From the NCBI GenBank assembly GCA_008632985.1, contig QPGO01000128.1, forward strand, positions 62,001 to 126,000: DNA of 64,000 nucleotides. Direction: 5' to 3'. This DNA comes from Psammoneis japonica. Taxonomy: Eukaryota. Position 1 is the first letter of the stretch. Each line of letters begins with the position of its first letter. This document shows positions 13,160 to 36,630 of this stretch, piece by piece. Made by a program: the position numbers and the translations under genes. The notes beneath the pieces were generated by a model. It saw nothing but the letters and a program-made list of their open reading frames with translations, was not told the origin of the DNA and did no database searches.

Positions 13160-13877
13160 TAAGGCGGTTTCTTTTGTACTACAAATTGCCAAACACTTGG
13201 CAAAAACGCGCGTAAAGCTCCTTCGTTCGCCTCTGAAGGGAAAATTTCTCTTCGTTGCTCGATTGCACCAGCCTGCGTAGAAAAGCACACAATCTTCCCG
13301 TGCGTGATTTTTTGGAAACAACACAGATGACACCGCTCGCACTCTTCAACCATGGCAAACAAACGCCACACACAACCGTGTCCGTGCACGGGAATCAAAC
13401 GCCGAAACTCCACATGATGCTGTCGAGTGTGACGATGCAGATGGTCCCACGAGGGACAAAATGCTCGACGAGCTGTGGTGCGGTGTGCCGAAGAGCGCGA
13501 CAGGAAGTTTCTGGTCGGCGGACACCTGCCGGATGACGAGGCGCACCGTCAATGCATTGGATGTGGGCATTTTTCTGTGGATGAGCCATGCCAAATTCAA
13601 AGTGTTGTGCAGAGGAATGAGAAAAAGCTCGATGAGTGGCAAACTTCGGTCGAGGAGTTTGAAAATTGCAAGAGGAGTGGCGCGCCATGTTGTGCACCCG
13701 GAGGAAAGCCCCAGTCTCGTAGACCGACCAAGCCCAAAGAGGAGACGGCATTTGCACTCTGCCATTGTGTGCGGATCTTCATTGGGATGGATGCCAGTGG
13801 CATGGAAAAAAAAACAGACAACCCAGAATCAACAATGCCGCTGTGTGATCCGATTGCATTGATGCCGAAGCAGTGTC

Positions 13878-14052
13878 GAATCTAGAGTGGTGCTGAACAA
13901 AGAACCTGGATGAGTGTCGAATCCAGAGCAGCATTGAACAAAGAACCTAGAGCGGTGTTTCATCTGGAGCAGCATTGAACAAACAACCTCTAGAGAGCAG
14001 TGTTGAATCTAGAGCAGTGTTGAACAAACAACCTGGAGCAGCATGGAATCCA
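13878..14052 (+). repeat. Degenerate minisatellite inside the TIR element
   Basis: Irregular repeats of AGAGCAG(C/T)(A/G)TTGAACAAA(G/C)AACCT and GAATC(C/T)AGAG. Confidence 0.7.
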
Positions 14053-14210
14053 ATCCAGGGTTGGCTGCAATCAAGTCACTCCCTCCGCCGACAGAGAGAA
14101 GTTGATGTTTGCCCTCCTGTGCACCACAAAATTCAACCTCTTCATCAAGCAACATGACGCATTGTGCGCTCTTGCACGTTGCGCGAGCCATTTCTTGCCC
14201 TCCCGTTGCC

Positions 14211-14600
14211 GACGCGTTCCAGGTCCAGGTGGGACCTCGTGCTGCTGAACTGTGACATCGACAGTTTTTTGAGTCTCGTCGCATGTCGCGCACGCAGATT
14301 TCTGCGTGATTTTTTCGACATTTTGTGTCATTTTACGGTGCACTCATTGAGCGATCCGTCCAACAACTTTTGACATTTTTTGTTGCAGCGCGATTCTACA
14401 ATGTCTTAAGAATCGCGCAGGGCAGGCGAAGTTGCAAAAACGTCGAGTGGCAAGAGGCACAATTGCACCACAAACTTGGCCGTTTATTTGATGTTGAAGA
14501 TGAACACATCCATTGATTAAATTCTCGCACTACGGAGCTCGCACGCAGAATTCTACGGGCCCAATGTCACACGGAGTCCCACCTGGGGCTGGAACGCGTC
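14211..14600 (+). mobile_element. 390-bp MITE with 25-bp TIRs and 4-bp TSD, copy 1
   Basis: Starts GACGCGTTCCAGGTCCAGGTGGGAC, ends GTCCCACCTGGGGCTGGAACGCGTC; TGCC on both flanks; inverted homologue at 35761-36147. Confidence 0.9.
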
Positions 14601-15715
14601 TGCCTCAAATGTGTGCACAGCAACACCAGGCATTCAACAATCGAACGAATTTCACCAGTGTTGGTTGATGAACGACAACTTGAGCCGCAATGCTCCTGAA
14701 CAGAAGCAAAAACTACGCATCACGCTGGCTGGAATGTCAAAATGGTGCAGACGGAGAACAAACAACAAATGTGAGTGAAGCCGCCAACGGAAAAAATGCA
14801 AAGCACCAAAGCTCTCTTTCGTTGCCATTTGGAGTTAAGTGAAACACGGGAGAGTGTGAAAATTGGCAGAATCGATGACAATGGGCACCGCCATTGTTGG
14901 GTGCATCCTCGTGCTTCACCGTGTCTTCGTCGGAGGTCGGAGGCGGGAGTCGGAAAGCAGCAAGACGCAGCGCTGTAAATTTCTACGTGGCTCTGGTACA
15001 AAATCGCAACGAATGGAAAATTTCCCTTCAGAGGCGAACGAAGGAGCTTTACGCGCGTTTTTGCCAAGTGTTTGGCAATTTGTAGTAAAATTCGACAAAC
15101 AAATAAACGACAAACATTTTGAGTCTAATTAGTCAAAATGTGTTTATCAATGTGTCGCTTTCCGACCCCTTCTAATGTAAATGAAAGATAAACATCGGCC
15201 GGCAGCAGTTTGAATTGCTTAATACATTATTGTGTATGAATGATAATATAAATTTTTGAATATTTTTATATTTATTCGTGTCATATGCTCAAGACATAAC
15301 GAACATTTATATTGGCATTAATGATTATATGCATCATAAATGTCATTTCGGCTGGCGGGCGGTTTGTTTATCCATTTTGTTTATCTCTCGAGTTGTGGCA
15401 GCGATTCGATTTTGGTGCCACAGTGGCATCGATAAAGATGAACAAATAAACACTTCATAACCCAAATGACTAACAAGACTCAAAATGTTTATCGTTTATC
15501 GTTTGTGTCGAAAATTTACAAAAGAAACCGCCTAACAGACAAGCCCGAACAGAGAAGAGCGCCGCAGCGCCGCGGCGGTGCGTGCATCAACGCAAGCAAC
15601 AACTTGCAGAGTTTGTTCGAAGTTCCGAGTTTGAAGTTCCGACATTCAGGTATCGTGCACGAATCGTCAGTCGAAACTGTGCAGCAGATAGAAAGTCCAG
15701 TTGAATGTTGGCACC

Positions 15716-17326: not shown

Positions 17327-19029
17327 AATAATTTGACAAATGCAATGGTGAGAGCGCTGAGCACAAGGAAAAAAGGCCTGACAATTGCTTGGTTCAAAAT
17401 AGCATGAGAGCTTCCCTGCACCCAACCCGCACAGTAGCACTAACAATTGCTATATGGCTTTTTGTTGAAACTTTCACCACCTATTAGCGCCGCCATTACC
17501 GACTTCTCGTACATGCAATGTTGCGATAGAGACGGGACACGGCCACACCTTGTCTGGCTTCAATCCGGCCGCGACCGCGTATCCTAAAGATCTCTGAAAG
17601 ATACAGACATTATGTTGAACCATGAGCGTGCTGCTGCGTTTAACATGTCCATCAGCAAAGCAAGAGTAGCACGGAAATGAATTTTTTGTCGATTCCTCGC
17701 CTTCTATCGGTGGTGGTGTTCTTCCAATGTCCTGTCACCGTCGTGAGAGCAACGGCCAACACTGAATCATCATCCGTTTCGTCGCACTGTGTTCGGTCCC
17801 CAACGGGGGTCAAGAAAGCCTTCTATGTGTGATGCAGCAGACCATGCATGTGGGAGCAAAACAGCAACCATCCACCAAGCTCCAAGTGGTGAATGTTGCA
17901 ACCAGAGGGACAGGTGCCATGTCCTTCGTTGCCACCCTCAGGGAGTTGAGCTGCACACCCATTCATGATGACATGTTGGCAGATCAGAAGTGGCTGATTT
18001 GTTTGGATCAACATTTGGTGCAAACCAAACTGCTGCCATGACTCCTGTTGAGTGGGCTTTCAAGCTGGTGCTCACAGGTTTGATGTCATGGAATCGGGCA
18101 TCATGATGCCCTGTTAATTTGTCGAACAAGCCGCCCAACAAAGTGACACAAAAATCATCGTTTTGTGCTTTGTGACGAGATCCGCAAAAATGGGTTGAAA
18201 GTTTTTTGAGTGTCTGGCATGCTGTTGAGATCTTTGAAAGGAGAAATGCCCAGCACTTTGCTGCGACACAAAGCCATCATCAAATTGTGGCCAAAGAGGA
18301 CAAAAATGGCCAAGCAAGCAAAGAGGAGGAGGAGGAGGAGGAGAAAAAGAACAAAAGAACAACAAGAAGAAGAAGGGCATGTCTTGCAACCCTCAGCTGC
18401 TCAGCCCAAGGGAGGTTGTTGCATTGTGAAATGTTTGACCAAAGCTTGTTTGGTGCTCGTCCTTGATGGGAGTGCGTGGTGAAGAGGGCGGGCGCAAACG
18501 CCGTGAGAACTTGTTGCATCCTCGCCTGATGGACAGGCAGACCATCTGATTTCCAAAAACAAAAAAGGATTGCACAGTGACCACGATGATGTCCAATGTG
18601 TGGGAATGTGGCAGATTGCACCGCAGAGATGGAAATGGCAAAACAGACAACTCAGGAGGTGCGGAACAACCAGTCGCTAAATTGCGAGAACAAAAACTGC
18701 TCTGCTCAACAACCAACAAGAAGAGTTTGCAGAGAACAAGAAGTGACTTGCATTTGTGCCAAACTCAACACAGATGAATGTGGTGTGAAGACTTGTCCAG
18801 AACAAAAAGTTCTTGATTGCATGAAAGAAGAACAGAAGTGAGGCTTTGTTCTCAATTTGAACCCCAGACCTCCGATCTCATTCGTTTCTTGATCTGTGAT
18901 TGGGCGAGTCTTTGACGGTGGTTGATGGCGGTTTCTGAGCGGTCATTGCAACACGCACAGTTTGATGGTGCAATCACATGGGACACACACATCTCACAAA
19001 TGAAGAACAATGTTGAAATTGCAGTGCCT

Positions 19030-20871
19030 CTGAAAATGTTGCAGAGCAGATGGCAAACAAAGTTGAGGAACTGGTTCTTTCACAGCATGACATTTTTGCC
19101 ACCAGGTTCAACGTCAAACAAAAAGAATGCTCTCTGACACTGGAGGAGAAAAAGGCAGGAAAAGACTGGAACCAAGCCCGCAGAGAATTTGTTGGGAAAT
19201 GCAATGAAGTTTTTGTGCCACATGTGCGTGCACTCCAATGTCACAATCAAGAAGAGATCGCATCATCGACCATCTCACCACCAATGCACAATGCTGGCAG
19301 CATGACAACAAGTCAATGAAGCAAGTTCAATGAACAATGAAGCAAGCAATGCCATCCATCTGCCATTGAAAAGTGGGAAGCTTTTGCAAATCTTTTAAAA
19401 GAGAAGTTTGACATGACCAGGCTTCCACTGCCGATGACTGTGCCATTGTGGGCAACCGTGGTCAGCAAGAGATGACAACAATGAATGAAATCATGGAGCA
19501 AAGCTTCCTCAACATGTTTGTGTTTGCACCATTTTGTGAAGCTGGTCTTGTGTGTCTGCCCTTCCAAGTGGATTCTGAAGAACGGGGCTGTTGTCCAACA
19601 ATTGGAATTCCCAACAAAGCCTGTTGCATGGAACTGACAGGAAATGACCCTGTCCAAGCTCAGAAAACAGCAGCTTTTGAAGCAAAGGCATTGCACAATG
19701 TGTCACTTCCAAATGACTTTGACAAGTTGAAGGAGTGTCATGAGGAGGCGGTCAAGAAGCAAGTGACAGTGAGGAAAAAAGAGCGATTCAAGAGCTGGTC
19801 TCAAATCTGCCACCAGCTCACCTGGGAATTTGCGTGCATGGTTGACAATGGTGTTTGATGTGGAGCTCTGTTTTGTGCTTCGAAAGCACACTTCATCCAC
19901 CTTGATGGATCAGGTGGGGAAGTTCACAGGGTTGAAATCACTGATGCACACATTGCTTGTCAGAAAGACTTTCTTCAGGCTTGGGCGTGTGTGATTTGTC
20001 TCGCCAATGAAAGTCCAGCACCGGCTGATGGAAACCACAGTCTTGAAACATCTCCAGGCACTGGCATCAGTTGGCTCAAAGAGACCCCAATTTGTGAAGC
20101 TGAAGCATCGGAATCAGTGATTGAAGGGCAAGAGCAAACTGGACATCGTCCCAGCAACAATGATTCTTCTGGTGGCGCTGAAAGCAGTGACGAACTTTCT
20201 GGAGGAAGCCAAAGTGACAAGGGCAGCAGAACTTGCCCCACGTCCAAGAAGCCAAGACATGAATCTCCTCAGCGCAGCATGAAGAACGGAACCAGGCAGG
20301 TGACTTTGACGTCATCACCGCCTCGGTTGGCTCAGTCGAGGTCTGATGAGGATGAGGAAGGGACCACTACTTCACTCCCACTCACCCCGCCAGACCACTC
20401 CTTCTTTGATTCGTTTCCTTTTGAAAACGAATTTGTAGATTCAGTCGATTTTCAAAGTTTGATGATCGGCCGGTTGTTGGGGATCGGAAGGAACGGAGAC
20501 GTCTGTGAGAGCGTCTATGGTGGAGAAAAGGTTGTGGTAAAGCAGTTTGATCTATCGAAGAATTTTGAAAGTTACGAGAATGAGGTCAAGGCGCACGTGC
20601 GCCTGAAAAAGGCATGGGGTGAGCTTGTTCCTACCCCAAAGTTTATTGCGCAGTCACCATCTGGCATGGTCAGGTTCCTTGGTCTACAGAAAGGGAGGTG
20701 TTTGATGGGCAGTTTTGCACCGTGATTGACAAGCTACGGAGTGACTATAACTTCCAACCTCTTGATTATTCTCATGGTCGCAACTGTATTGTTGTAGATG
20801 TAGACAATGGAACAAAGAAGTTGCTCATTATCGATCTAGAATTTTGGAAAGACGCTGTGACGATTGAGTAG
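19030..20871 (+). pseudogene. Pseudogene of a protein with a C-terminal protein-kinase-like domain (start approximate)
   Basis: LLGIGRNGDV..VVVKQFDLSK..YENEV..WGELVPTP..GRNCIVV..LLIIDLE-stop; upstream part has stops and Tyr-to-Cys/His-type residues (FACMVDNGV, KAHFIHLDG, QAWACV); frameshift near 20700. Confidence 0.7.
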
Positions 20872-21122
20872 ACTGATTTTGGTTATAGACGATTAGCTCT
20901 ATCGTTATCCTGTTAGAACAAGAGCGTCGATGTTGTAAGAAGACTGATTCAGCATACCCTATATCTCACTTTTCTAATTTAGTCGCAGTTTCGGTAGCGC
21001 ATAGCGTATCTTACAAAATGCCGTAAGACACTCTGTCGAAATATGACTTCTTCGTTCATAATCCTGCACAGAATTATGATTCGGCAACCGTCATCGCATT
21101 CTTCCTGTTTCCCTTTCCTTTT

Positions 21123-22610
21123 TCATAGATAGACTGCAAGCGTGAGAAACAGAAGACATAACAAGACGTGTTGTATGTACTGAGTAAAGCCGTTCTTGAT
21201 GGTAGAAGGTATCACATAGGCGCAAAACGCCATGACCCAATAGTTAACCATGTACTTTGGAAACACCAGCATGACNNNNNNNNNNNNNNNNNNNNNNNNN
21301 NNNNNNNNNNNNNNNNNNNNNNNNNNNNNNNNNNNNNNNNNNNNNNNNNNNNNNNNNNNNNNNNNNNNNNNNNNNNNNNNNNNNNNNNNNNNNNNNNNNN
21401 NNNNNNNNNNNNNNNNNNNNNNNNNNNNNNNNNNNNNNNNNNNNNNNNNNNNNNNNNGAAAGCCTTCGTAGACTTCAATGCAATAATCCATGGTCAGCAA
21501 GGTCCAAAGCGCCACGACAAACCATATATTACCAGAAACCGATGCTGACAAACACGCCAACACAGACGTGACAGTGGCGTGTCCACTAACCACCAAGTCA
21601 TTGCATCCCCCATTGGCTTGTGGTCGCAGGCCTACCAAAATCCAATTGGCCCAGTCGCTCGGCGGTGGATTGGGAAAGCGTTGGCCATAACACCGCGGTA
21701 CTTGAGAAGGCAAGACGGTGACCAAGAAGGAAATGACACGCACGACTCGTGCCGTGGATAAGACAATAAGCGCTCGCATCGACACGGCCCACAGGGTCCG
21801 TCTCGGGACCAATCCCAAATCACAGCAAAACATGGACGTGACGCACGCTGCCACCAGTGCCCATTGAATGTTGAAGAGTGCGCGCAAGTGCTGTAAATCT
21901 CGTCGTTGGAGTTGTAAAATGGTTTCGTACAGCCATTCTTGTACCAGTCGACCATTGTCTTGGAGGGGTGGTGGTGTCGTTGCCAAGCTATGACTATCAT
22001 GGTTGGTAGCCGCCACGACCCATACGAAAAAGTTATCCACCAACAGCACCACAACCAAGAGCAAGGCGGAACTAATGGCACGAATTTCTCCAGGCCATGT
22101 CAGCGGATTCAATGACATTTTGGTTTTTTCATTTGTGTTGTTATTTTGTTTCTGGGCTGTAGCTTCGTTGTTTTCGTGTTGAGGTCTCGTGGCAATTCCA
22201 AAGAAAAAGAGCGCCGTCAGCGCGATACCAGCACTTGCATAGGATGGTAATTGATTGCATGCAATGGCAAGCACAAACGCAAGTGCAATTAGTCGTTGAT
22301 GCGTAGCATTTTTGGCCGATGCAACCACCCAAGCAGCCATGATTACGGGTACAGACGCAATCCAAACGAGCATCCACCAATTTCGGTTGGGCCTCGTGGC
22401 TGTGGAGAGTACCAAAAGGATCAACACGAGACCCACCAGCCCAATAGCAAGAATCATTCCCTTGTTGGATTTGCATGCTGTTGTACTCGCAGCAGATGCA
22501 GCGCTATGATCCTTGTCGTTTCTCTCCACGTCTGTGCCTGATGCAGCGCTCATTTTCTTGTTCTTGTTTGGAGGAGGAGACGAAGCCTTTTTCCGAGAAG
22601 GTCTATACAT
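21123..22610 (-). CDS. Sphingomyelin synthase / inositol phosphorylceramide synthase family membrane protein (PAP2_C-like), partly masked by Ns
   Basis: PPPLQDNG, RVISFLVTVLPS..C, GGCNDLVVSGH motif; EVYEGF immediately before the gap where the HYxxD motif is expected; many TM segments. Confidence 0.85.
   Translation of the reverse strand: MYRPSRKKASSPPPNKNKKMSAASGTDVERNDKDHSAASAASTTACKSNKGMILAIGLVGLVLILLVLSTATRPNRNWWMLVWIASVPVIMAAWVVASAKNATHQRLIALAFVLAIACNQLPSYASAGIALTALFFFGIATRPQHENNEATAQKQNNNTNEKTKMSLNPLTWPGEIRAISSALLLVVVLLVDNFFVWVVAATNHDSHSLATTPPPLQDNGRLVQEWLYETILQLQRRDLQHLRALFNIQWALVAACVTSMFCCDLGLVPRRTLWAVSMRALIVLSTARVVRVISFLVTVLPSQVPRCYGQRFPNPPPSDWANWILVGLRPQANGGCNDLVVSGHATVTSVLACLSASVSGNIWFVVALWTLLTMDYCIEVYEGFXXXXXXXXXXXXXXXXXXXXXXXXXXXXXXXXXXXXXXXXXXXXXXXXXXXXXXXXXXXXXVMLVFPKYMVNYWVMAFCAYVIPSTIKNGFTQYIQHVLLCLLFLTLAVYL
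21276..21457. other. N-run (182 nt)
   Basis: Seen directly; second N-run at 24525-24924. Confidence 1.
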
Positions 22611-22806
22611 AATTTTATGGAAGATGGGATAGAATAGACAATCACCAACTACCGGTAGAAGCGAATGGCGATTGAAGAAATGCTTTCGCGCCGTTGCAAC
22701 CTGCAGCAACAGGCGTTGCTGCTCGTGCAGAATAGATCTGTGTCATCATGGTGTTGAATACGCAGTAAATAACGCGTTGTCGGTTGACCTGGATGGAAGG
22801 ACAGAC

Positions 22807-23000
22807 TGAAGCACGCACACCTGAATCATAAACATCTGGGTGAAAAGCTTGTTGTTCCTCGTCTTGGGTTTGCCCCCTCTGCTCTTATCTTGTTCAAGCC
22901 TCGATCTCACTTGCAGATTCAACTAAGAAACATCCAAAAATGGCTGTGAGAACCACGCTGAAGCTCCAAGCACTTTGTCCTTTGCACAGGTGCAAGCAAA
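22807..23000 (+). repeat. ~200-bp dispersed repeat; also at 25982-26175 (via duplication) and, diverged, at 30864-31070
   Basis: TGAAGCACGCACACC..AATCATAAA..TCTGGGT..TTTGCCCCTCTGCTCTT..CCTCGA..TGCAG..TCAACTA..CTGAAGCTCCA shared. Confidence 0.8.
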
Positions 23001-24297
23001 TGGGTGGACACACGTGTGTCTCTGCGGCGCTTTCTCACCGCGCTTCACCCGCCTCTTGCTGCTGCTGTTGTTGTCTGTCACATGGCTGGCATTGCAGCAC
23101 TGCACTCACTGTTGCATGTGTGTTTTGTGGTGGGGGCAGCATGCAAGAGCAAAACTTTGAAGTGCACATGACGATGATGACGATGCCGTTGCTTGTGAGA
23201 GCTGCGCCCTTCCCTCGGAGTTTGATTTTTTGTGGCCAGTGGGGAGTCAAAATGTGTGGGTTGATGTGTTGCAAGATGCAAGGGGTTGTTTTGCTCAAAA
23301 CTCCACAGCTTGGCTTCACCCCAGGTGGACAGTTGCCATGACACACAAAATGGATGTGGGGTTGTCGCTCTGCGCGCATCATGTGCACCTGTCTCTGCTC
23401 TCTGCCTTGTCAGCCGGGCTTGCTTCTTGGTCAGCCGCATCAAGCCATTCTCCTGCCTTGCTTGCTGTGGCAGCTCACTCTCACTCAAAAACCCTCCAAG
23501 TGCCATCATTTTGGAGTGCAAAAATCCAAGCATTGTGGCACACTCACAGGAGCCAGTCACATCTTCTTGTGCACGGAAATTCTGCATTTGGTCTGTCAGA
23601 TGCCAGAACAGGCACACACCCTCAACTCTTGGACATTGTGAAAACACTGCACTGCAGGAAGCTCAGGCCTGCCCATCTCCCCTCACAGTCTGAGTGAGTG
23701 CACAAACAGCCACTGACTGGACTGTGCAACAATCTGGCATGCTCAACAGAGTCAATCTCTTCCCACACAGCAAACTCACACCTCCCCAGCATCCTCAAAG
23801 TTCTGTGCACTTGCTGTGCCTGACAAATGACACCTGGGTTTTTTGCCATTTTGTTGCCCATGCATTGTCCTGTCATCACTTCAACAAGCAACATCATTTG
23901 ATGCCAAGCTGCGGAGTGACTGTGACTTCCAACCTCTTGATTGTTCTCATGGTCGCAACTGCATTGTTGTAGATGTAGACAATGGAACAAAGAAGTTGCT
24001 CATTGTCGATCTAGAATTTTGGAAAGACGCTGTGACGATTGAGTAGACTGATTTTGGTTGTGGACGATTGGCTCTGTCATTGTCCTGTTAGAACAAGAGC
24101 GTCGATGTTGTAAGAAGACTGATTCAGCATGCCCTGTGTCTCACTTTTCTAATTTAGTCGCAGTTTCGGTGGCGCATGGCGCATCTTACAAAATGCCGTA
24201 AGACACTCTGTCGAAATGTGACTTCTTCATTCACAATCCTGCACAGAATTATAATTCAGCAACCGTCATCGCATTCTTCCTGTTTCCCTTTCCTTTT

Positions 24298-25785
24298 TCA
24301 TAGATGGACTGCAAGCGTGAGAAACAGAAGACACAACAAGACGTGTTGCATGCACTGAGCAAAGCCATTCTTGATGGTAGAAGGCATCACACAGGCGCAA
24401 AACGCCATGACCCAACAGTTAACCATGTACTTTGGAAACACCAGCATGACGCAAAACGCCAAGACGGCAGACAATGGAAGTGAGCCGGTGCCAACAATTG
24501 CAGATGGCTCACTCGGAGGAACCANNNNNNNNNNNNNNNNNNNNNNNNNNNNNNNNNNNNNNNNNNNNNNNNNNNNNNNNNNNNNNNNNNNNNNNNNNNN
24601 NNNNNNNNNNNNNNNNNNNNNNNNNNNNNNNNNNNNNNNNNNNNNNNNNNNNNNNNNNNNNNNNNNNNNNNNNNNNNNNNNNNNNNNNNNNNNNNNNNNN
24701 NNNNNNNNNNNNNNNNNNNNNNNNNNNNNNNNNNNNNNNNNNNNNNNNNNNNNNNNNNNNNNNNNNNNNNNNNNNNNNNNNNNNNNNNNNNNNNNNNNNN
24801 NNNNNNNNNNNNNNNNNNNNNNNNNNNNNNNNNNNNNNNNNNNNNNNNNNNNNNNNNNNNNNNNNNNNNNNNNNNNNNNNNNNNNNNNNNNNNNNNNNNN
24901 NNNNNNNNNNNNNNNNNNNNNNNNTGCCGTGGATAAGACAACAAGCGCTCGCATCGACACGGCCCACAGGGTCCGTCTCGGGACCAATCCCAAGTCACAG
25001 CAAAACATGGACGTGACACACGCTGCCACCAGTGCCCATTGAATGTTGAAGAGTGCGCGCAAGTGCTGTAAATCTCGTCGTTGGAGTTGCAAAATGGTTT
25101 CGTACAGCCATTCTTGCACCAGTCAACCATTGTCTTGAAGGGGTGGTGGAGTCGTTGCCAAGCTATGACTGTCATGGTTGGCAGCCGCCACGACCCATGC
25201 GAAAAAGTTATCCACCAACAGCACCACAACGAAGAGCAAGGCGGAACTGGTGGCACGAATTTCTCAAGGCCATGTCAGCGGATTCAATGACATTTTGGTT
25301 TTTTCATTTGTGTTGTTATTTTGTTTCTGGGCTGTAGCTTCGTTGTTTTCGTGTTGAGGTCTCGTGGCAATTCCAAAGAAAAAGAGCGCCGTCAGCGCGA
25401 TGCCAGCACTTGCACAGGATGGCAATTGATTGCATGCAATGGCAAGCACAAACGCAAGTGCAATTGGTCGTTGATGCGCAGCATTTTTGGCCGATGCAAC
25501 CACCCAAGCAGCCATGATTGCGGGTGCAGACGCAATCCAAACGAGCATCCACCAATTTCGGTTGGGCCTCGTGGCTGTGGAGAGCACCAAAAGGATCAAC
25601 ACGAGACCCGCCAGCCCAATGGCAAGAATCATTCCCTTGTTGGATTTGCATGCTGTTGCACTCGCAGCAGATGCAGCGCCATGATCCTTGTCGTTTCTCT
25701 CCACGTCTGTGCCTGATGCAGCACTCATTTTCTTGTTCTTGTTTGGAGGAGGAGACGAAGCCTTTTTCCGAGAAGGTCCACACAC
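24298..25785 (-). pseudogene. Hypermutated duplicate of the SMS/IPCS-family gene
   Basis: ATG changed to GTG, in-frame TGA at ~25264, many Tyr>Cys/His, Val>Ala, Leu>Pro, Ile>Met changes relative to 21123..22610. Confidence 0.9.
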
Positions 25786-28196
25786 AACTTTGTGGAAGAT
25801 GGGGCAGAACAGACAATCACCAACTGCCGGCAGAAGCGAATGGCGATTGAAGAAATGCTTTCACGCCATTGCAACCTGCAGCAACAGGCGTTGCTGCTCG
25901 TGCAGAATGGATCTGTGTCATCATGGTGTTGAATGCGCAGCAAATAACGCGTTGTCGGTTGACCTGGATGGAAGGACAGACTGAAGCACGCACACCTGAA
26001 TCACAAACATCTGGGTGAAAAGCTTGTTGTTCCTCGTCTTGGGTTTGCCCCCTCTGCTCTTATCTTGTTCAAGCCTCGATCTCACTTGCAGATTCAACTG
26101 AGAAACATCCAAAAATGGCTGTGAGAACCACGCTGAAGCTCCAAGCACTTTGTCCTTTGCACAGGTGCAAGCAAATGGGTGGACACACGTGTGTCTCTGC
26201 GGCGCTTTCTCACCGCGCTTCACCCGCCTCTTGCTGCTGCTGTTGTTGTCTGTCACATGGCTGGCATTGCAGCACTGCACTCACTGTTGCATGTGTGTTT
26301 TGTGGTGGGGGCAGCATGCAAGAGCAAAACTTTGAAGTGCACATGACGATGATGACGATGCCGTTGCTTGTGAGAGCTGCGCCCTTCCCTCGGAGTTTGA
26401 TTTTTTGTGGCCAGTGGGGAGTCAAAATGTGTGGGTTGATGTGTTGCAAGATGCAAGGGGTTGTTTTGCTCAAAACTCCACAGCTTGGCTTCACCCCAGG
26501 TGGACAGTTGCCATGACACACAAAATGGATGTGGGGTTGTCGCTCTGCGCGCATCATGTGCGCCTGTCTCTGCTCTCTGCCTTGTCAGCCGGGCTTGCTT
26601 CTTGGTCAGCCGCATCAAGCCATTCTCCTGCCTTGCTTGCTGTGGCAGCTCACTCTCACTCAAAAACCCTCCAAGTGCCATCGTTTTGGAGTGCAAAAAT
26701 CCAAGCATTGTGGCACACTCACAGGAGCCAGTCACATCTTCTTGTGCACGGAAATTCTGCATTTGGTCTGTCAGATGCCAGAACAGGCACACACCCTCAA
26801 CTCTTGGACATTGTGAAAACACTGCACTGCAGGAAGCTCAGGCCTGCCCATCTCCCCTCACAGTCTGAGTGAGTGCACAAACAACCACTGACTGGACTGT
26901 GCAACAATCTGGCATGCTCAACAGAGTCAATCTCTTCCCACACAGCAAACTCACACCTCCCCAGCATCCTCAAAGTTCTGTGCACTTGCTGTGCCTGACA
27001 AATGACAACTGGGTTTTTTGCCATTTTGTTGCCCATGCATTGTCCTGTCATCACTTCAACAAGCAACATCATTTGATGCCATGTGTCATGGTCAGCTTTT
27101 TTCACCCCATGTTGTGGCACACTCTTTGGACTGCCAAGACACAAATTTGCCATGATTGGGCTCCCGTTTCACCATGTCATGCCCCACATTTCTCACATTG
27201 TGGTCCACTTCATACAAACCCAGCTTGCCACATTTTGCTGTGGTGGCACCAGCACCAGCTTGACTGAAGACATGTTGTTTGTTGCTGTCTGCCTGCGCAT
27301 GTTTCCATCCAGCGAGTTTCCTTGACTTCGCTGATGCTGCTGTGCTGCACAGCTTTTGCCTCTGGTGACATTCATTGCAGCCATGCTTGGCACACAACTG
27401 CTTGCTTTGTTGCTGCTGCTGTTGGTGCTTTTCCCACTCTCGTGTCATCTTTTGAAGCTTCCTGTCCCTTTTTGTTGCATTGTCAGATGCTTTCTTCTTG
27501 TTCTCTTCTGTGCTTTTCTTGTTTCCAGCCAAGCACAACATTTCTTCTTTTTTGGCACTCATCACCAAAGGATTTGTGCTTGGTCTGCCATCCTCTTTGC
27601 ACAGCTGAACAAAGCATTGCACTGTTTGATGCTCCCTTCAGACATGAGCCTGCTTGTCTCTTTCTTGCAGTCTGTCTGGCAACCAAAATGCGTGCAAAAT
27701 CACACACAGAGCAGATCAATTTGTGGCCCAACCAATGCACATTCACATGAAAACAGCCACACGATGCAGCAGTTCATGGCAAGAGATGTGGAAGAATTGG
27801 ACAGTGCGGGCTTGTGTCCATCCACAAACAGGAGTTGGCGGACAGAAGATAACCAAAGACAAATTCGCCTGACATTGTCACCCTGAACTATGTCACAGCA
27901 ATCGACATGTCTACGCAAGTGGAGTAATGTAAATGTAGAAATAAACGCATTCGCGACCAAGTAATTAGAATGGCAGTGATGCGATAACAATTTCAAAGAA
28001 GTTTGAGTGTTCCTCCACATTAACTTGTGCCAAGCAACTCGACACCCAAGCTTCCCTTTTTGAGGCTTTCTTTTGGCAGACATGGAGCCAAACAGGACAG
28101 GGCAGTGGCCAAACGTGGCGATTTTCTCGTCGTGATTCGTCAGTTTTCAACCGAGGTTACGACGAGGGTTCTCCATACGCCCACATAGATCGGTTT

Positions 28197-30716
28197 TCAT
28201 GAGCTGTTGGACATTAGTTGCCAACGACGCAGGCTCGACCATGCAGCTCCGCCATCCTTTTGGCATTCAGCTTGTGCATAAGCAGCGTTCCCCAACACGA
28301 ACTTGTTTCTAATGAGTTCTTTTTCATCAAAGTGTTGCCTGTCGAGAGCATACAAGAGATATTTGTCAAAGTTTAGAACAAACTTTTCACGATCCGCGCG
28401 AGGAAGCCTTTGCATCAAGCGATCCGTGACGGGTTGTGTGCAGCCCCCGACGAGTCCCACAGCCAGAGCCATACAGACAGAAAGGCGGCCGCTTTGCACA
28501 TGGTTGGCGAGTGTATTGACAAAAACAGATAGAAATGAGGTTAGCGCGATGGACGTGACATCTTTGGCAAGATATTGCTCCAACGAAATGAGAAGCACAA
28601 TCTCAGCCGCCTGCAGAGTCACTGCAAGCCGATGCGTCACCGTCAAGAGTGATTCCTTTTTGCGTCCTACTCTCATGTAGGTTTTCCCACAAGATGCGTC
28701 AGCCAACACCTGTAGCAACCGGCGATATGACTCCTGAAGGACTTGGCTGCACCGCATCACAATGTCTCGTACAATCCATAGTTTATTCAATTCGGTCTCT
28801 GCTGTCGTTCGTCGAGGTGGATCAGAACCCAACAAGGAGAAAACATCATGTTGCGTAGCCAGGCCATTCAGTTTCGAGTCCGCCGCAATGACCTTCTTCC
28901 GAGCAGACGTCAGTTCAGAGGCTAAAACAACTTCGTCAGTTTCGACTACGTCCTTTTCAGAAGACTTAGACAAGAGCCGATCAAAGGTTTTCTGAGATAG
29001 AAGCAAAATCGCCGATAAAGACGTCGACTCTGCTAAACCATACCGGTGCTCGAGACATTCCACGGCAGTTGACACAAAGCAACAGTACTCTGGTGGAAGC
29101 GAACATACAGGGCAGTATTCAACTCGAATTGGGTTTGCAGTTGGGACCGTTTTTGTTGAGGCGGTTCCTGCAATTGTTGGACGCGCGGCAATGGGTATCA
29201 GATCATCCACAATCATACACCGACTTTGACCGTCTCCTCGAGTCACAGCTCGCATCTGTCTCCATACCTGACATGCTGGGTGTCTGACAGATTTGTACGT
29301 TATGAGCCACTCGAGGCATCTACGCGTACGAGAATCAAATGACACGTTGCCATCTTCACGCATTGCAGTGTACGCCATCAAACCGACCGTAAGCTTCAAA
29401 ACACGAATTACAACTTTGTGTGACACCTCCTCGAGTGCAAGCACACCATGTACCAGCTCGTTACGGCACGGGAGCGGTTCGTTATTGCCATGGTCAAATG
29501 TGTCGGGCAGACCCATCCATACAAACTCGTCGTAGAGTGCATCGACGGCTCCTTGTCCCAAGTATCCAAGCAGCCCATTCGGGAAATGTTGCAACAAATC
29601 TGTGTCTGCTGGAGTGCTCCTGGACTCACTACCCTCTTCATTGTTTTGGTCACCGCACACAGTTGACCGAAGGATGGTTGCAAGTGTCACGTGAAGCCTA
29701 TCTGTCCGGGCGAGCAATGCGTCATGGCAAAGCACGGATCTATTCTCTCTTGCGTAGAGTCCTCGGAGACCTCGCTCCAACACTACGTACATGAGTGCCA
29801 AGGCACGCCACAACGCCGCAGGTTCCTTGTTGCATTGCTGCAAAAGGCGACACGATTCAAGAAATGCGGCACGCATGTTGGGTGGTACAAAGGCCCCCGA
29901 AACGGAGACAAGAGCATGGACAGCACTTTTTTCCGGGATGAAGGAAGATTCCAACACTATGTCTTGTTGGACAAATTGACTGCTTCTGGGATCCATGAAA
30001 AGGAGGGTGGCACGTCGGTGCGGTTCCAGGCCGAGTGCAACGACAAGCCACAAGAGGCACGTCCACTGCTGAACTTCAGCTGGTCCGACGTAACCATGCC
30101 AGACAAGGTTACGCAAACAAACCCCATTGAGTGGTCCCACCAATACATGCAAAACGAGCGAGAGAGGTAACCCCAGCCGTGTCCGCAAAGCTTTTAGCAA
30201 GTCACGTATTCTCCAATTCGCATCCGAGTCGTTATTTCGGGCAGGTGCAATGGACTCGAGTGTCGCATCGAGCTCTGCCAGTAGCAGCTGTGTGGCACTG
30301 AAATAACAACACGTATTGCTTGATTCAGTTTCCTCGTGATCAAGCAGCATTTGTAACGCAAGCTCCACTCGTTCAGGGAGGCATATTTTGTTCTTGATAA
30401 CGTCGTGCCGTAACTGCTGCTGCACATCCACATTTGCTTGGATCGCAGCTACAAAGAGTTGCCGAGAAGCACAAAACATGATTTCATCGGGCTTTTGATC
30501 CAAAGCATGGAGAATGTCCTTGTCAGTGCAGTCCGGTAAACAAAGCAGCGAAGAAGGAGACAGAGGACCGTAATCGAGCTTCAATCTCGGCAAACATCTT
30601 TCCTGATTATCCTCGTACAGCAAAAGTGACTCCAGGTTAAGATCATTCAGAGTCGGAACGACTGGCTCTTCGCCAAAGACTGCCACCACGGCCGCTGATA
30701 ATGACTCGTATGGCAT
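28197..30716 (-). CDS. ERMARD-like (DUF4209) protein with an internal DENR/Tma22-type zinc-binding motif
   Basis: IRDLL..L..LVGPLNGVCLRNLVWHGY and LERGLRGLY..LLA....LHVTL..IL resemble ERMARD; second RN.L.HG motif (CRNELVHG); VEYCPVCSLPPEYC resembles the DENR N-terminus. Intact 839-aa ORF. Confidence 0.7.
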   Translation of the reverse strand: MPYESLSAAVVAVFGEEPVVPTLNDLNLESLLLYEDNQERCLPRLKLDYGPLSPSSLLCLPDCTDKDILHALDQKPDEIMFCASRQLFVAAIQANVDVQQQLRHDVIKNKICLPERVELALQMLLDHEETESSNTCCYFSATQLLLAELDATLESIAPARNNDSDANWRIRDLLKALRTRLGLPLSLVLHVLVGPLNGVCLRNLVWHGYVGPAEVQQWTCLLWLVVALGLEPHRRATLLFMDPRSSQFVQQDIVLESSFIPEKSAVHALVSVSGAFVPPNMRAAFLESCRLLQQCNKEPAALWRALALMYVVLERGLRGLYARENRSVLCHDALLARTDRLHVTLATILRSTVCGDQNNEEGSESRSTPADTDLLQHFPNGLLGYLGQGAVDALYDEFVWMGLPDTFDHGNNEPLPCRNELVHGVLALEEVSHKVVIRVLKLTVGLMAYTAMREDGNVSFDSRTRRCLEWLITYKSVRHPACQVWRQMRAVTRGDGQSRCMIVDDLIPIAARPTIAGTASTKTVPTANPIRVEYCPVCSLPPEYCCFVSTAVECLEHRYGLAESTSLSAILLLSQKTFDRLLSKSSEKDVVETDEVVLASELTSARKKVIAADSKLNGLATQHDVFSLLGSDPPRRTTAETELNKLWIVRDIVMRCSQVLQESYRRLLQVLADASCGKTYMRVGRKKESLLTVTHRLAVTLQAAEIVLLISLEQYLAKDVTSIALTSFLSVFVNTLANHVQSGRLSVCMALAVGLVGGCTQPVTDRLMQRLPRADREKFVLNFDKYLLYALDRQHFDEKELIRNKFVLGNAAYAQAECQKDGGAAWSSLRRWQLMSNSS

Positions 30717-31129
30717 GAGGCTGGATCTCTCGTGTTACCATTGATGCCCATTATCCTGCGGTGCCATCGTAAGCCTCATCTTATTTTGACACACCATCAC
30801 CGCATACAATACGCACTCCTACTATCAAAAAATCTATCTCTCTAGCTAAGATTTTTCATCATATGAAGCACGCACACCCAAATCATAAATGTCTGGGTTA
30901 AAAGAGCTTGTTTCACATTCCTCTCTTGTGGGGGTTTATTTGCCCCTCTGCTCTTTGTTCAATCCTCGACTTCACCTGCAGTTTCAACTAGCATGAATCA
31001 AAAGATGACCACAAGAACTACACTGAAGCTCCACGCGTTTAGTCTTTTGCACAGAGGCAGCAGCACAAGCAAACACAGACACATCTGCTGCACTTTTTGT
31101 GTGCTTGTCAAAAGGAGAACACCCAGATG

Positions 31130-32540
31130 ATGGAGCCAATCAACCAACACTGTGCCATTTGTCACTTCAAAGGCAGAAGCAGCTAAACAACAAAATGAAC
31201 AACTTTTCCATCAGCTGTGACACCATGATGGAATGCTTGTTTCCTGTTCATGATGCGCCAGCTGAAATTCAAACAAACGCGGCAGAAAATCAAAGTGTGG
31301 GCAAAAGAAGAATTTGCAGTTTCTCCATGTGTTCAGGGTGACCCAAAGCATTTTCTATCAGTGACATTTCTTCATTGGTCCATGCAATGTCACATCCTGT
31401 CTCAAGATCACCAGTGCAGGCTCAAATGAAGCATGTGTGTGCAGCACATTTGGGGGGCTCTCACCTGCTTGACAGAGGAACAACAACACTTGTTCATTCT
31501 TGATTGATGGATTCACTCAAAAGACATCTTCAAGCAGGCTCGCATGGTCTGTCCTTGCTCTCAGTGATCAGAGTCACTTGGTTCATCATTGTAAAAACAT
31601 CCGCAATTTGCTTGACAAAACTCTCGCCCATGACACAACTTCCTTCAAAGTTGGGCTCACAGCTCCCGCCATGGTCTTTCTTTCTGCCACAATTTCTGCT
31701 GAAGGCAAAAGGCTGATCTCTCCAATTGAGTCTCAACTTTTGGCAAGTTAGCCAAGACAGAATTGAGTCTTCTTGGGGCAGTTTGGCACTCTGAAACATG
31801 GCTTTGCTCTTCTTGCAGTTTGCAGTGAGGAAGGCGGGTGTGTGGGCGGTGGCAGCACAAAACAAGGCACAGCCAACAAGAAGGAAAGAAGTCAAGAATG
31901 CCAAGCACAAAATTCTTCATGGTGTTCTTGTCAACATGTTGGTCATGGATTTTGGAAGTTTTTTGAGAATCCCAATGAAAAAGGGCTGGACCAATGCTGT
32001 CAAAACAACTGTGAACAAATCATGGCTGCACAACAAGGTTTTTTCACTTCGTGTGATGTGGATTTTCTGGCCACTCTCATTGGTCTGCAGTGATGGTGTC
32101 ACATCTTTTGGCTTTTTGAATTGTGTGGACATGCTTTCATGCTCATCTAAAAAGAATGAGCAGGCTTGGACAGACAGTGCACTTGAGAGCTTGGGGATCT
32201 AGCTCCTCCTGCTCTTTGTGTCTTCTCTCTGGGTTCATGATGTCATGATGGCATTTTGATCTGCACCTGCAATGCTGACCTTTGTGACAAAGAACAAATG
32301 TGTGAAAAACCCATTGAGCTTGTTTTGTGCAAAGCAGAGATGCCAGGCTCTGAAGTGCAAAAATCAGCAAAGCATGCACAATCCAACCACAAAGGAGAGG
32401 CCCAAAATGATTGATGTGCTCCCAGATGAATTTGTCGTCAACCCAAGAGAACAGTGTCTCACTCATCACCACGGGGCATGAACAGGCACAGCAGTGGGAA
32501 CAGATTTCCTCTTTTGGCAAGAATGTGTTGATGCATCAGC
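31130..32540 (+). repeat. Decayed ~1.4-kb duplicate of 40820-42220
   Basis: Collinear blocks GATGGAATGCTTGTTTCCTGT, GTGTTCAGGGT.ACCCAAAGCATTT, AAAACATCCGCAA, GATGGCATTTTGATCTGCACCTGCAATGCTGACC. Confidence 0.9.
31572..31920 (-). pseudogene. Frameshifted pseudogene copy of the one-helix LHC-like gene at 41296..41619
   Basis: Fragments MKNF, LTSFLLVG, AMFQSA..QEDSI, LPKVETQLERSA, GESFVKQIADVF in different frames. Confidence 0.85.
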
Positions 32541-34859
32541 CATGGTCATTGCCCACAGTGGCTGGACAGTCATGGGGCTGAAAGCACACACAAAACTGAC
32601 GACAATTGCTGCACACCACTGCGCTTCACTTGTTTTTGTTCTGCTCCCCTGGCTGAGCCCTTCAGCTGTTTCTTCCTAAGAAGTTGTCCTAATTTCCAGG
32701 GTTTTCCTCAAAAGGACAAGGCAGCTCCCCCTCAACCTGGCCATTTTGGGGAGTGTCCAAATGGGCGAAACCAAACCAAGCTTTTGGAATGGATGCAAAG
32801 CACACACCGCAACAGCAAAGGACAATCGCAATCAGAAAAAGATGCAGAAAAGCCTTGCTTCCAAGGATGCATCTTGTCTTCACCAAGTGCTTGCCTGGTT
32901 TGCACGCAGCAGGCACACTGGGATGAAAGCAAACAAGTGGAACACAATGGATGTTCAGGAGTTGAGAAGGATTTCGAAAGAAACATTTTTCTCATGCAGA
33001 GTTGACTTGATGTGTTTTGCAGATCTAGTTTGGCCACCTTGGGCATTGACTTTGCGTGGCGCAACAGACCCTTTGAATGCAACAGGTCCATTCAAGCAAC
33101 AAGTGCACAATGTTTTGCCAATTCCTTGGCAAAACATGTCATTCCTGCTCCACATTGTCGATTGGTGCTAACTTCACAGTGCTTGAGGGGACTGCTGTTT
33201 TTGCTCAAATTTGATCAAACAGCTTGTGATTTGCATGATTTTTCCTGAATTTCACCATGCTTCGCTGTGGTGAAAACATCAAGCCACACAAGTCTGTGAC
33301 GGAGGTGGTCTGTCTGTGTCAACTCCCACCTGTTTTGTGATTGTTGTGCATCAAAGGTCACACACACACACATCAAACATTTGAGGATGGACCACTGCAT
33401 TTTGGAGCTGTGTCAACATTGCCATCATCATCATGCTTTGATCGCGGTGCCTGATGTTCTTGTTTTTTGTGCAGTTGGGGGTGAGTGCAAATTGTTTTTG
33501 TGTTCAAAAACAAGACACCACAAATGTCCTTGCTTTCAAATGCCACTGCAACTCCCATTGTGATTTGCAGAAAAAAACACATCTCATCCCACACAAAATT
33601 CTGTGACTGGCTCAGCACATCTCAGCCTCAAGCCCCACATCTGTGGAGTGAGTGTCGCTTGTTGTCATCATTTGAAAGCATCACTCTTTGTGTGATGCCC
33701 AAAAACACACTGTCAAATTTGTTGATGATTGTGATGAAAATTGACACATGTCATTAAATGGCTGAACAAGCACAATGAAATGGTGCTTGCAAAAATTGCT
33801 GGTTGCATTGCGATGTGCTTTCAACTCAGTGAAAATGGAAGATCATGAGAAATGAACAGTTTGGATGCACTGCGGCAGGTTTTGTCACTGCACCAAAACA
33901 TGCACAAATGAGAGAGACATTGCTCCAGCTTTGCAAGTTGGTTCCCAAGTTGGTCACTGCACAAAATCAGTGCTTGCACACTGAAATGTTCATTTTTTGC
34001 ATTTTCTCTTTGCTGGCGGCTGGCGTGCATCTGAACAATCATCATCTGGTTTTTGCACCTTGCTTGTGCATGAATTGCATTTTGTTTGGCATCAGCGGGC
34101 ATGTGCCACACCACAAGATTGAAGTTTGTTGAGAACTTCCAGGCAAACCACAGCCACCACAGCCACCAGGACAAGTGCAACAAGTGGTGCAGAAAACCTT
34201 GGGGGGCTGGATTTTGGCGACATTGACTGGTTGGTTCAACAACACAAACAGCACACACAAACCATGAGGGCACCGGTCGCTTTCCACTGAAAATTGTTGC
34301 ACATCATGGGGAAAACCCTCAACGGCCTGCTTGGAGGAATTGAACAATCAAAATTGCAAGCTCGCGAAAAATCAAGCCTCGGCTTGACGATCCATCTTTG
34401 AGGTTGCACGGGTGCAAAAGTGGGCCAGATTTCATGTTGTGTGGAACTTGGTGTGTTTTCTGCACAAATCGTCAAAGTCACCTCACCTGCTGAAACCCTC
34501 TCCTGGATGATGGAAACTTGAACATTTCTCATGACAAAGTGTTTGGAGCACTTGTTTGCACTCCCCTCGACTTGTTCACAGGGAGAAACTGCAAGTTTCC
34601 ATGCATTCCTTGTTTGGCATTGCCATTTGAATCTCGAACATCATGATTTTGGCACCTTTCTGTTTAGATTCATCATGCATCTTCAAAAACACATGGAAAC
34701 TTGCAGTTTCTTTGACTGCCCAAGTTGATTGGATGGAAGAGAAGGAGCCTGTGGGGTTGGAATCGTTAAACAGGGCACGTGCAAGTGTCGTTCAGTTGCA
34801 CTCTGCAGCGATTTGGTGATGGCGGACAACAAGTGAGCGATCGCAAAAATGGAGTCAAG

Positions 34860-36630
34860 CTTCCAATGACACACTCTCTCATCACAATGCTCGTGGTTGT
34901 CGAGATGATGCTCGATGATGGCATTGCTTGCCCTCTTGAATTCTTCAAATGACTTGTTGCAGCTCTGCTTCACCCAGCTTCCAAAGTTGCACTTGAGTTG
35001 TTCGGCATCATTTTTGTCCACTCCCGATGGATTGGATTTCTTGGGCCCACGTGCAAGTGCAAACAATTCTTTGGCAAACTCTTGGTTTTGGCAAGTCTTG
35101 TCCTTTGCCACCCACTTTACCTCTGCACAAGAAAGGGGCAACTGTCCGTGGTCAGGCAATTTCCGTGTCTCACCATTTGCCATTGTCTTTCTCGGCCAGT
35201 CCTTCTCGGCAAAGTTGATGTTCGGATCTTCAACTTTGGCTTTGCAGGAGGGCTTTGTGTTGGCAACGGTGGTGGAGTCATTGTCAATTGCAAGAGTGTG
35301 TGCAGACTGTGCCCCCTTCTGTTCAGTGAAACAAGCGCGTTGACTGCGTGCTTTGGCTCCATCGACTTTGACGACCCGCTGTGGTTGCTCATGCATTCGT
35401 GCTCTTCAGGTGTTTCTCCTTTCCCAAATGCTCATTGACATGTTGAGTGGAGCTCACTCTGCAAGCTCTTTGCAACAATTTTGCTGCAGAGGCCGCCGGC
35501 GGTGAATGCGTGGCCACTGTTGGAGCCATGTGAGTTGCCTGACCCATGTGCCTGCCATCCTGTGTCCATTCTGCCAGCCAATCCGGGGAGCCGTTGTGTC
35601 TGGGTGGCTTCCCACTCTTTCTTCAGATTGTGGTCCATGCACTTGTTTGCAATTTCTTCCATGATTGGGTGCAACTTGTTCTTCTCAACAGTGGGCCAAG
35701 GCTTTTGGCAGAAACAGCACAGGCCCAAGATGCCGCATGTTGTTTGGAGGTCTGCATGGTGACGGGTTCCAGTCCTGGGTGGGACTTTTTGTGACATTTG
35801 CCCCGCAGAATTCTGCGTGCGAGCTCTGCAGTTTGCACTGTGGTTGATGGATGTGTTCATCTTCGACATGTAAAAAAGGCCAAGTTTGTAGCACATCTAT
35901 CCCTGTTTGCACTCGAAGTTTTGGACAGTGCGCCTGCCCCACGCCATTCTTAAGACACTCGAGAATGGCGTAGAAGAAAAAAATGTCAAAAGTGTTCAAT
36001 GGACAGCCTGATGAATGTGCTATAAAATCATACAAAATTTCGCCAAAATCACGTAGAAATGTGCGTGCGCGACATACGACGCGATTCAAAAAACTGTCGA
36101 TGTCACAGTTCAGCAGTGCGAGGTCCCACCTAGACCTGGAACGCGTCTGGCCCAAGTCAGTCAAGCAGCACGCAAGCACCGACTTGATGTTGATGGTGTG
36201 TGTGACAGTGTTGTTCTGGTGTCCAGTGGGAAGAGGCTCGGGCTCCAATGTTGTGACGTGTCCTTTGTCACATCTGCATGAGACGGCACACAACAAACCG
36301 ACTTCATCAGCAGCAACGGACTTGCGCGGCATTTGCAAGCCATGTTTTCTTCAATCGTCTCAGCCAGTTCTTTCAATGGAAGTGACACATGATGGTCTCT
36401 GTCATCTTTCAGTTTATCCTCTTCCTCTTCATCTTCAGATTCTTTGTCTTCTGATTCAGGATGGCATTCGTCTTCAGCAGATTCATCATCAGTCCACTGC
36501 AGTGTGTGGCTGTCCTTGCCATCGTCGTTCTCAGAGCTGTTGCTGCTGTCATCATCAGCAACACTTGTTCCAGGTGAGTCCAAAGGAGATGGCTGGCAAC
36601 ATTGTTCTGCCTGCACCCGGCTTGCCATGA
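34860..36630 (-). mobile_element. Decayed Mutator-like/Kolobok-like DDE transposase gene, interrupted by a MITE (limits approximate)
   Basis: MDTGWQAHGSGNSHGSNSGHAF..GG..KIV, NHSGSSKSMEP, IDNDSTT, LKCNFGSWVKQ, IIEHHLDNHEHC; reading L-G-H-A-D-L-Q is restored on removing 35761-36147 plus one TSD. Confidence 0.75.
35761..36147 (-). mobile_element. 390-bp MITE family, copy 2 (inverted)
   Basis: Same TIRs as 14211-14600; flanks TGGT/TGGC (4-bp TSD with one CpG-type transition). Confidence 0.9.

Follow-up and report, generated by a model that had tools for sequence, protein, structure and literature searches.

A tandem duplication among TpA-free domains

We analysed a 64,000-nucleotide stretch of Psammoneis japonica contig QPGO01000128.1 (positions 62,001 to 126,000), referred to below as the window. 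It carries a tandem duplication that includes a sphingomyelin-synthase-like gene, and seven domains in which the dinucleotide TpA is almost absent, together about 25 kb of the 64 kb, or approximately 40% of the window (Table 1). Recognisable genes, among them a 7tm_3 receptor, AAA_16, MIP and DUF4209 genes and a sulfotransferase-like open reading frame (ORF), were found only outside these domains, and the genes of the window consist of long ORFs without interruption, the largest of them 845 aa. An earlier note on this DNA had described one copy of the duplication as caught in the act of hypermutation from TpA to TpG or CpA, and we confirmed that this observation is real; the interpretation given there is supported in part.

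By repeat search and local alignment, the duplication is a direct repeat whose period is 3175 bp, and the parts that can be compared align without indels; the repeat search found no inverted repeats around the duplicated unit. Two runs of N remove 474 bp and leave 2706 positions that can be compared between the copies, and 82 of these differ. TpA bases make up 6.1% of positions yet account for 58 of the 82 differences (binomial P = 2e-51). Copy 1 has 82 TpA sites that can be compared; at these, copy 2 reads TpG in 30 cases and CpA in 28, keeps TpA in the other 24 and shows no other outcome. Against these 58 conversions in copy 2, copy 1 has at most one TpA difference in the reverse direction.

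The left end of the unit (20727-21275) contains 33 differences, comprising 27 changes from TpA in copy 1 to TpG or CpA in copy 2 (at 27 of 42 TpA sites), four CpG>CpA changes among 24 CpG, one TpG/TpA difference in the opposite direction and one transversion, at 20729. The middle segment (21750-22930) contains 45, with 31 at TpA (31 of 40 sites), five CpG>CpA, one CpG difference the opposite way, five other transitions and three transversions. The remaining third (22931-23906) has no TpA in either copy, and here the copies differ at only four of 976 bp. The hand counts in the earlier note agree with ours almost exactly: 32 differences for 20730-21275 (the 33rd, the transversion, lies just outside that start), 31 of 40 TpA converted with about 14 other differences in the middle segment, and about four or five in the third that was already TpA-free. 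Since this tail lacks TpA in both copies, with only four differences, it must have been converted before the duplication, and the gene part of copy 2 after it.

The duplication borders at 20727, 23902 and 27077 share an imperfect 5-bp microhomology (TGNCA), which suggests that the duplication may have arisen by slippage or a microhomology-mediated event. A 288-aa ORF (19859-20871, + strand) spans the point near 20400 where TpA-free DNA gives way to normal DNA and ends at the left edge of the unit; copy 2 contains a duplicate of its last part. It looks kinase-like by impression only and has no Pfam match.

Polarity of the change

A pairwise difference is by itself symmetric, and could equally have come from an ordinary change of CpA to TpA (C>T) in copy 1, as in repeat-induced point mutation (RIP). 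The intact gene, however, is that of copy 1. In the copy-2 pseudogene one stop (25264-25266) replaces Gly155 through a transversion and the other (25123-25125) replaces Arg202 through a CpG>CpA change on the + strand, while the missense changes are Tyr>Cys/His, Val>Ala, Ile>Met/Thr/Val and others. When both copies were aligned with 60 homologs, the copy-1 residue was the commoner one at 20 of the 22 differing residues, for example Thr183 (60/60), Tyr438 (51/60), Tyr475 (44/60), Tyr459 (40/60) and Val177 (36/60). The copy-2 residue was commoner at just two positions, both N-terminal and poorly conserved. The agreement of the homologs with copy 1 makes copy 1 ancestral and the change one of TpA to TpG or CpA in copy 2, which upholds the polarity first proposed from the intact ORF. 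Moreover, creation of TpA cannot yield multi-kilobase domains without TpA, and G+C content is not lowered. On these sequence comparisons we regard the reverse polarity as already refuted, its remaining probability being negligible.

The named matches in the protein searches are from the diatoms Nitzschia, Cylindrotheca, Odontella, Skeletonema, Pseudo-nitzschia, Fistulifera and Helicotheca; the sole non-diatom name is a transcriptome record with an organism label starting 'Tiarin'. No match in three protein searches came close to 100%. Together with the long uninterrupted ORFs, which contrast with the annotated and intron-rich genome of Bigelowiella natans, these matches suggest that the window belongs to a diatom or a near relative and not to B. 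natans.

Sequence context and rate of conversion

Changes from A to G were counted from copy 1 to copy 2 with both strands pooled. They are found at 58 of 164 adenines preceded by T, as against 3 of 408 preceded by A, 3 of 508 preceded by C and 1 of 324 preceded by G, or 7 of 1240 for all contexts outside TpA. This supports a strongly targeted A:T>G:C process at TpA. The 3' neighbour matters as well, with conversion of 23 of 43 TAC, 22 of 48 TAT, 10 of 38 TAG and 3 of 35 TAA (chi-square P = 1e-4). The process requires a 5' T and prefers TAY over TAG over TAA. The TpA sites left in the old domains offer an independent check of this context: these 64 are enriched in CTAA/TTAG (19) and TTAA (10), whereas ATAT and GTAC have none left, compared with 88 and 102 in normal DNA.

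Conversion of 71% of the sites corresponds to approximately 0.61 events per target base. The background is 0.0043 differences per base for both lineages together, and the ratio of the TpA conversion rate to it is approximately 280. Conversion is uneven along copy 2, with 27 of 42 sites at the left end and 21 of 22 at 22227-22826 in copy-1 coordinates (Fisher P = 0.006). Of the five transitions that involve neither TpA nor CpG, three (at 22075, 22613 and 22629) adjoin a converted TpA and have the form A>G or T>C, which hints at occasional spill-over to the neighbouring adenine.

A second, slower component affects CpG. C>T changes are found at 9 of 208 CpG cytosines and at 3 of 1090 other cytosines, a pattern that fits decay of methylated CpG as a minor component and does not account for the loss of TpA; in the young copy 71% of TpA sites are lost as against 9 of 86 CpG sites. 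The earlier argument that neither RIP nor plain deamination of 5-methylcytosine (5mC) can explain the TpA loss is supported. On the + strand, every one of the 12 CpG differences between the copies (20904-23508) is of the G/A type, never C/T (binomial P = 5e-4); nine are losses in copy 2 and three are losses in copy 1. CpG deamination between the copies thus seems to have involved only the minus-strand cytosine. The minus strand is the coding strand of the gene, and some of the 12 sites lie outside the gene.

Both copies are present in the genome

Public sequencing runs cover 24925-30900; they come from a single sample, perhaps that of the assembly itself, and their platform is unrecorded. The runs listed include none of RNA, and run X3 contributed no contig to this stretch. 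In one run (X1), word depth was 65 over the unique flank (27125-30900) and 112 over the near-identical part of the repeat (25832-27081). Where the copies differ, paired alternative contigs were recovered at depths of 56 versus 58 and 62 versus 65; in each pair one contig is an exact match to copy 2 and its partner bears 8 or 10 copy-1 letters. This depth pattern indicates that each genome holds two copies and that they are not alleles of a single locus. The tandem junction is confirmed by a contig with a loose end past 27081, which continues into the start of copy 2, and another contig (27052-30900) crosses the border between TpA-free and normal DNA.

An artefact, whether miscalling of modified bases or two alleles stacked into a false tandem repeat, might be suspected from the two N runs inside the repeat and from the single source of the runs. 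Apart from depth, it has to contend with clean de Bruijn contigs of high exact-word depth that reproduce both versions and both junctions, with the transversions and stops that copy 2 carries in addition, and with the indels and approximately 19% divergence of an old TpA-free copy elsewhere in the window. Miscalling at a palindromic site would also be expected to yield a mixed consensus of TA, TG, CA and CG, not a clean purge. The run data exclude mis-assembly well and a chemistry-specific miscall less completely; overall we consider an artefact very improbable.

TpA-free domains and their contents

TpA was scanned in 127 windows of 500 bp. TpA rho is below 0.1 in 44 of the 127 windows, and gaps without any TpA reach 1709 bp. 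Symmetrised rho in the domains versus 27.9 kb of gene-bearing DNA is 0.04 versus 0.57 for TA, 0.30 versus 0.98 for CG and 1.79 versus 1.19 for CA/TG; G+C is 49% versus 47.5%, and ApA is not depleted (rho 1.24, compared with 1.16 in normal DNA). Across windows, TpA depletion goes with CpA/TpG enrichment (Spearman -0.87), and TpA loss coincides in position with CpG loss (Spearman +0.71). Each domain has TG and CA in balanced numbers. The borders are switch-like: the TpA at 41878 is followed by the next only at 42487, and at the right border of the domain that includes the end of copy 2, TpA is found at 27213 and 27850 and is dense from 27889.

Table 1. Coordinates of the duplication, the TpA-free domains and their recognisable contents within the window
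Feature	Coordinates	Strand	Remarks
Copy 1 of the repeat	20727-23901		Gene part 20727-22924 with normal TpA content; tail 22925-23901 TpA-free
Copy 2 of the repeat	23902-27083		58 of 82 comparable TpA changed to TpG/CpA; 9 CpG changed to CpA
N run	21276-21457		182 bases; outside the comparison
N run	24525-24924		400 bases; outside the comparison
Sphingomyelin-synthase-like (PAP2_C) gene, copy 1	21123-22553	-	Intact; frame open through the N run
Pseudogene, copy 2	24298-25728	-	2 premature stops and 20 missense changes
TpA-free domain	18116-20367		2 TpA in 2.25 kb
TpA-free domain	22925-23969		0 TpA; already without TpA before the duplication; crosses the copy junction
TpA-free domain	25340-27850		3 TpA; right part of copy 2 and unique flank; public contig spans the 27850 border
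TpA-free domain	31000-38500		36 TpA, 10 of them in island 35871-36131; holds old copy and transposase relic
TpA-free domain	41880-44220		5 TpA; holds decayed copy of part of the AAA_16 gene
TpA-free domain	52084-60420		12 TpA in 8.3 kb; largest and most CpG-poor (rho 0.03-0.16 over most of it)
TpA-free domain	62590-64000		Runs past the window end
Old TpA-free copy	31126-32516		Partner is normal DNA at 40818-42201; indels, ~19% divergence
Decayed copy	42266-42501		Source is part of the AAA_16 gene, 50064-50436
Mutator-like transposase relic (PF20700)	35120-35896	-	Two consecutive fragments, E 6e-5 and 2e-6

Self-BLAST of the window identified older pairs with one member inside a domain, and found no partner within the window for most of the domain DNA. 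The tandem duplication is thus just the most recent instance of the conversion. The 26 aligned TpA of normal sequence 40818-41741 read TG in 11 cases, CA in eight, something else in seven and TA in none in the domain copy at 31126-32052, and 30 of the 41 CpG of the same sequence now read CA or TG there.

ORFs from the domains were scanned against Pfam, 13 long ones and then 119 of at least 95 aa. Apart from the Mutator-like relic and one additional, sub-threshold zinc-finger match, the scan gave little: no reverse-transcriptase or integrase domain was found among the 119 ORFs, in which heavy mutation may hide matches. As to the kinds of target, the 119 ORFs contain one Mutator relic and no viral domain, and a host gene copy is clearly a target. 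Beside the relic, 35761-36147 is 79% identical to a reverse-strand partner at 14211-14600, which falls in a partly TpA-depleted zone (13280-14980).

Loss of TAA and TAG leaves TGA as the only stop, and numerous ORFs of 100-240 aa without any family match are therefore present in each of the six frames of the domains; such long spurious ORFs make TpA-free DNA a trap for gene predictors. The island of 10 TpA in 260 bp in the middle of the 31000-38500 domain may have been inserted later or may be protected. The 8.3-kb domain starts within a few bases of the upstream end of the AAA_16 frame (49555-52077, - strand), so any AAA_16 promoter would sit in TpA-free DNA.

Proposed explanation and alternatives

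We propose that a real, locally targeted process changes TA to TG or CA in discrete silenced segments of a diatom-like nuclear genome, and we put the probability of this reading as a whole at about 75%. The sequence 5'-TA-3' becomes TG or CA through A>G on either strand, with both strands affected equally, and conversion runs to completion and leaves multi-kilobase TpA-free domains. The targets would be silenced segments, that is transposon relics, redundant host gene copies and other gene-free DNA, and neighbouring active genes would be left untouched. The same segments lose CpG more slowly, most simply by deamination of 5mC in methylated heterochromatin; CpG methylation of transposons is known in diatoms. 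The data show the signature with its polarity and context, the ratio of rates, the structure of the domains and the reality of both copies, whereas an enzyme, a chromatin mark and a role in defence are proposals. At the duplication, the probable order is that the tail of the unit was already TpA-free, that the unit was duplicated through microhomology, and that the extra gene copy was then edited and became a pseudogene. The most probable chemistry is that a TadA/ADAT2-like enzyme, brought to silent chromatin, deaminates adenine in DNA to hypoxanthine. In the natural substrate of TadA/ADAT, the target A34 likewise comes after a U (U33). We offer this enzymatic step, taken on its own, as a tentative proposal that stands somewhat short of even odds.

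Several observations weigh against this explanation. Runs of conversions on the same strand have weak statistical support (P = 0.015 for one segment, 0.12 for all), whereas a processive single-strand deaminase would be expected to produce strand-coordinated runs. The evidence for methylation consists solely of CpG decay. TpA reads the same on both strands, which makes A>G on one indistinguishable from T>C on the other. The run contigs that reproduce both copies share one sample, perhaps the assembly's own, and no viral or foreign domain other than the Mutator relic was found in the 119 domain ORFs. The trait is also not visibly widespread: among 37 metagenome loci that encode relatives of the gene (L001-L037, approximately 0.22 Mb), none has a TpA-free stretch, although these contigs are gene-rich and are therefore weak evidence of absence. 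The sole low-TpA window among the 37 lies within a contig of 61% G+C. Five of the metagenome contigs (L026-L029 and L032) are CpG-poor (rho 0.52-0.66) with normal TpA.

The earlier note had called the process repeat-associated, and a homology-triggered system resembling RIP, in which duplication is sensed and a TpA editor is directed to repeated DNA, would agree with the freshest target being one copy of a tandem duplication, with two older TpA-free stretches being copies of nearby normal sequence and with the transposon relic inside a domain. However, only copy 2 was edited, the TpA-free flank at 27125-27924 is at single-copy depth, and TpA-free DNA occupies some 40% of the window, most of it with no partner there. 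In the chlorarachniophyte Bigelowiella natans, moreover, the main region of comparable hypermutation is single copy (Mettrop et al., 2026; bioRxiv 10.64898/2026.01.13.699255). The association with repeats is therefore unproven, and we consider a homology trigger possible but not needed, and on balance unlikely. A different chemistry would act on the thymine of TpA: a TET/JBP enzyme might, for example, oxidise it to 5-hydroxymethyluracil (hmU) or to a J-like base, and T>C would follow from mispairing with G or from faulty repair. The palindrome gives it equal standing as to context, since 'T before A, preferred after a purine' describes the same sites, and some protists do replace T by hmU, preferentially in TpA; hmU opposite A is just weakly mutagenic, however, and we find this improbable.

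Error-prone patch repair was one of the two mechanisms suggested initially. In such a model, T:G mismatches derived from 5mC in methylated domains would enter non-canonical mismatch repair and attract A>G errors by a Pol-eta-like polymerase. The shared segments of TpA and CpG loss speak for it, as does the position of three of the five other transitions beside converted TpA. The Pol-eta hotspot is WA, ApA included, yet A>G at ApA (3/408) is not above that at CpA (3/508) and is far below that at TpA, and ApA is not depleted in the domains. TpA loss also outruns CpG loss, which is the reverse of what a CpG trigger predicts. Repair of this type is a poor fit and, in our judgement, less probable still than thymine-directed chemistry.

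Beyond the deaminase-like step, the broader idea would be a heritable genome defence in which a natural DNA adenine editor is aimed at silent chromatin and erases every TpA. We hold this idea tentatively, as something that may well prove wrong. If it is true, TpA would be erased from transposons, foreign DNA and surplus host gene copies in diatoms or in this lineage, leaving heterochromatin that lacks TAA and TAG stops, TATA elements and TA or TTAA integration sites. Enzymes able to deaminate adenine in double-stranded DNA might then be obtained from such organisms.

Comparison with known systems

Fungal RIP consists of C>T changes that make TpA and lower G+C. The domains described here resemble its products in their dense transitions within one dinucleotide context, in the destruction of duplicated or transposon DNA and in their sharp compositional borders. 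They differ in that TpA is destroyed and G+C is not lowered (49% versus 47.5%), in that one copy is mutated (58 conversions in copy 2, at most one in copy 1) where RIP mutates both, and in that the host is not a fungus. RIP was excluded because the outgroup polarity is opposite. Deamination of 5mC accounts for the slower loss of CpG to TpG or CpA in the same domains (rho 0.30), but it is unable to remove TpA, which is lost faster.

The ADAR/ADAT enzymes and the adenine base editors derived from TadA convert A to inosine, which is read as G, and share a preference for a 5' U or T. Their substrate is RNA, and single-stranded DNA only for engineered forms, whereas the change here is heritable, lies in genomic DNA, affects both strands and is found in a tandem copy that was not retrotransposed. 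The numbers of TG (30) and CA (28), and the non-genic DNA included in the tandem copy, argue against an ADAR-edited retrocopy. Hypermutation of the Pol-eta type at WA, with A>G at both TpA and ApA, is likewise at odds with the 3 of 408 found at ApA against 58 of 164 at TpA.

The earlier note knew of no described pathway with this signature, but localised hypermutation of TpA to TpG or CpA has so far been reported once, arising de novo in the rhizarian alga B. natans, in an April 2026 preprint (Mettrop et al.; bioRxiv 10.64898/2026.01.13.699255). In mutation-accumulation lines sequenced with Illumina, 231 of 302 new nuclear mutations fell in one giant-virus and one virophage insert, at approximately 1000 times the normal mutation rate, and 230 of the 231 were A>G or T>C, all of those at TpA, with TpG or CpA as the product according to strand (bioRxiv 10.64898/2026.01.13.699255). 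According to the same preprint, the long-term trace consists of clustered windows depleted in TpA and enriched in CpA and TpG, TpA-poor genes are enriched in transposase and reverse-transcriptase domains, and the authors propose that an ADAT2-like protein deaminates adenine in DNA. We found no report of this hypermutation in a diatom in the literature searched, and the words 'CpG' and 'diatom' are absent from the main text of the preprint. A text match to 'TpA' in PMC4504042 proved to be the word 'Tpase-like' and is irrelevant.

As far as the main text of the preprint allows comparison, the two systems share A>G or T>C at TpA (here 58 of 82 differences), confinement to discrete regions (here about 280 times background, with sharp domain borders) and depletion of TpA with enrichment of CpA/TpG (here rho 0.04 and 1.79). 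The differences are considerable. The host there is a chlorarachniophyte (Rhizaria), whereas the homologs here are diatom-like, from another supergroup. The viral inserts there retain many TpA (rho 0.45), where here the purge is complete (rho 0.04), and here the targets include a duplicated host gene caught part-way. CpG loss and the preference for TAY over TAG over TAA go unmentioned in the preprint's main text. Finally, the process was seen de novo there and is deduced from sequence comparison here.

Our observations are thus best filed as a new lineage and new kinds of target for the TpA hypermutation described in a chlorarachniophyte, with what appears to be the same signature in a diatom-like stramenopile. 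To that system they add a visible end state, in the form of large domains completely purged of TpA, and a dated intermediate, a young duplicate converted at 71% of its sites at 0.4% background divergence. They also add host gene copies and, apparently, a DNA transposon as targets, and a TAY > TAG > TAA preference that any candidate enzyme must reproduce. If confirmed, the process would join RIP and CpG methylation as a second kind of genome defence by mutation, and could point to natural DNA adenine deaminases. If the defence idea is right, the two cases together would suggest that marine algae have an 'adenine RIP' that is ancient or has evolved more than once.

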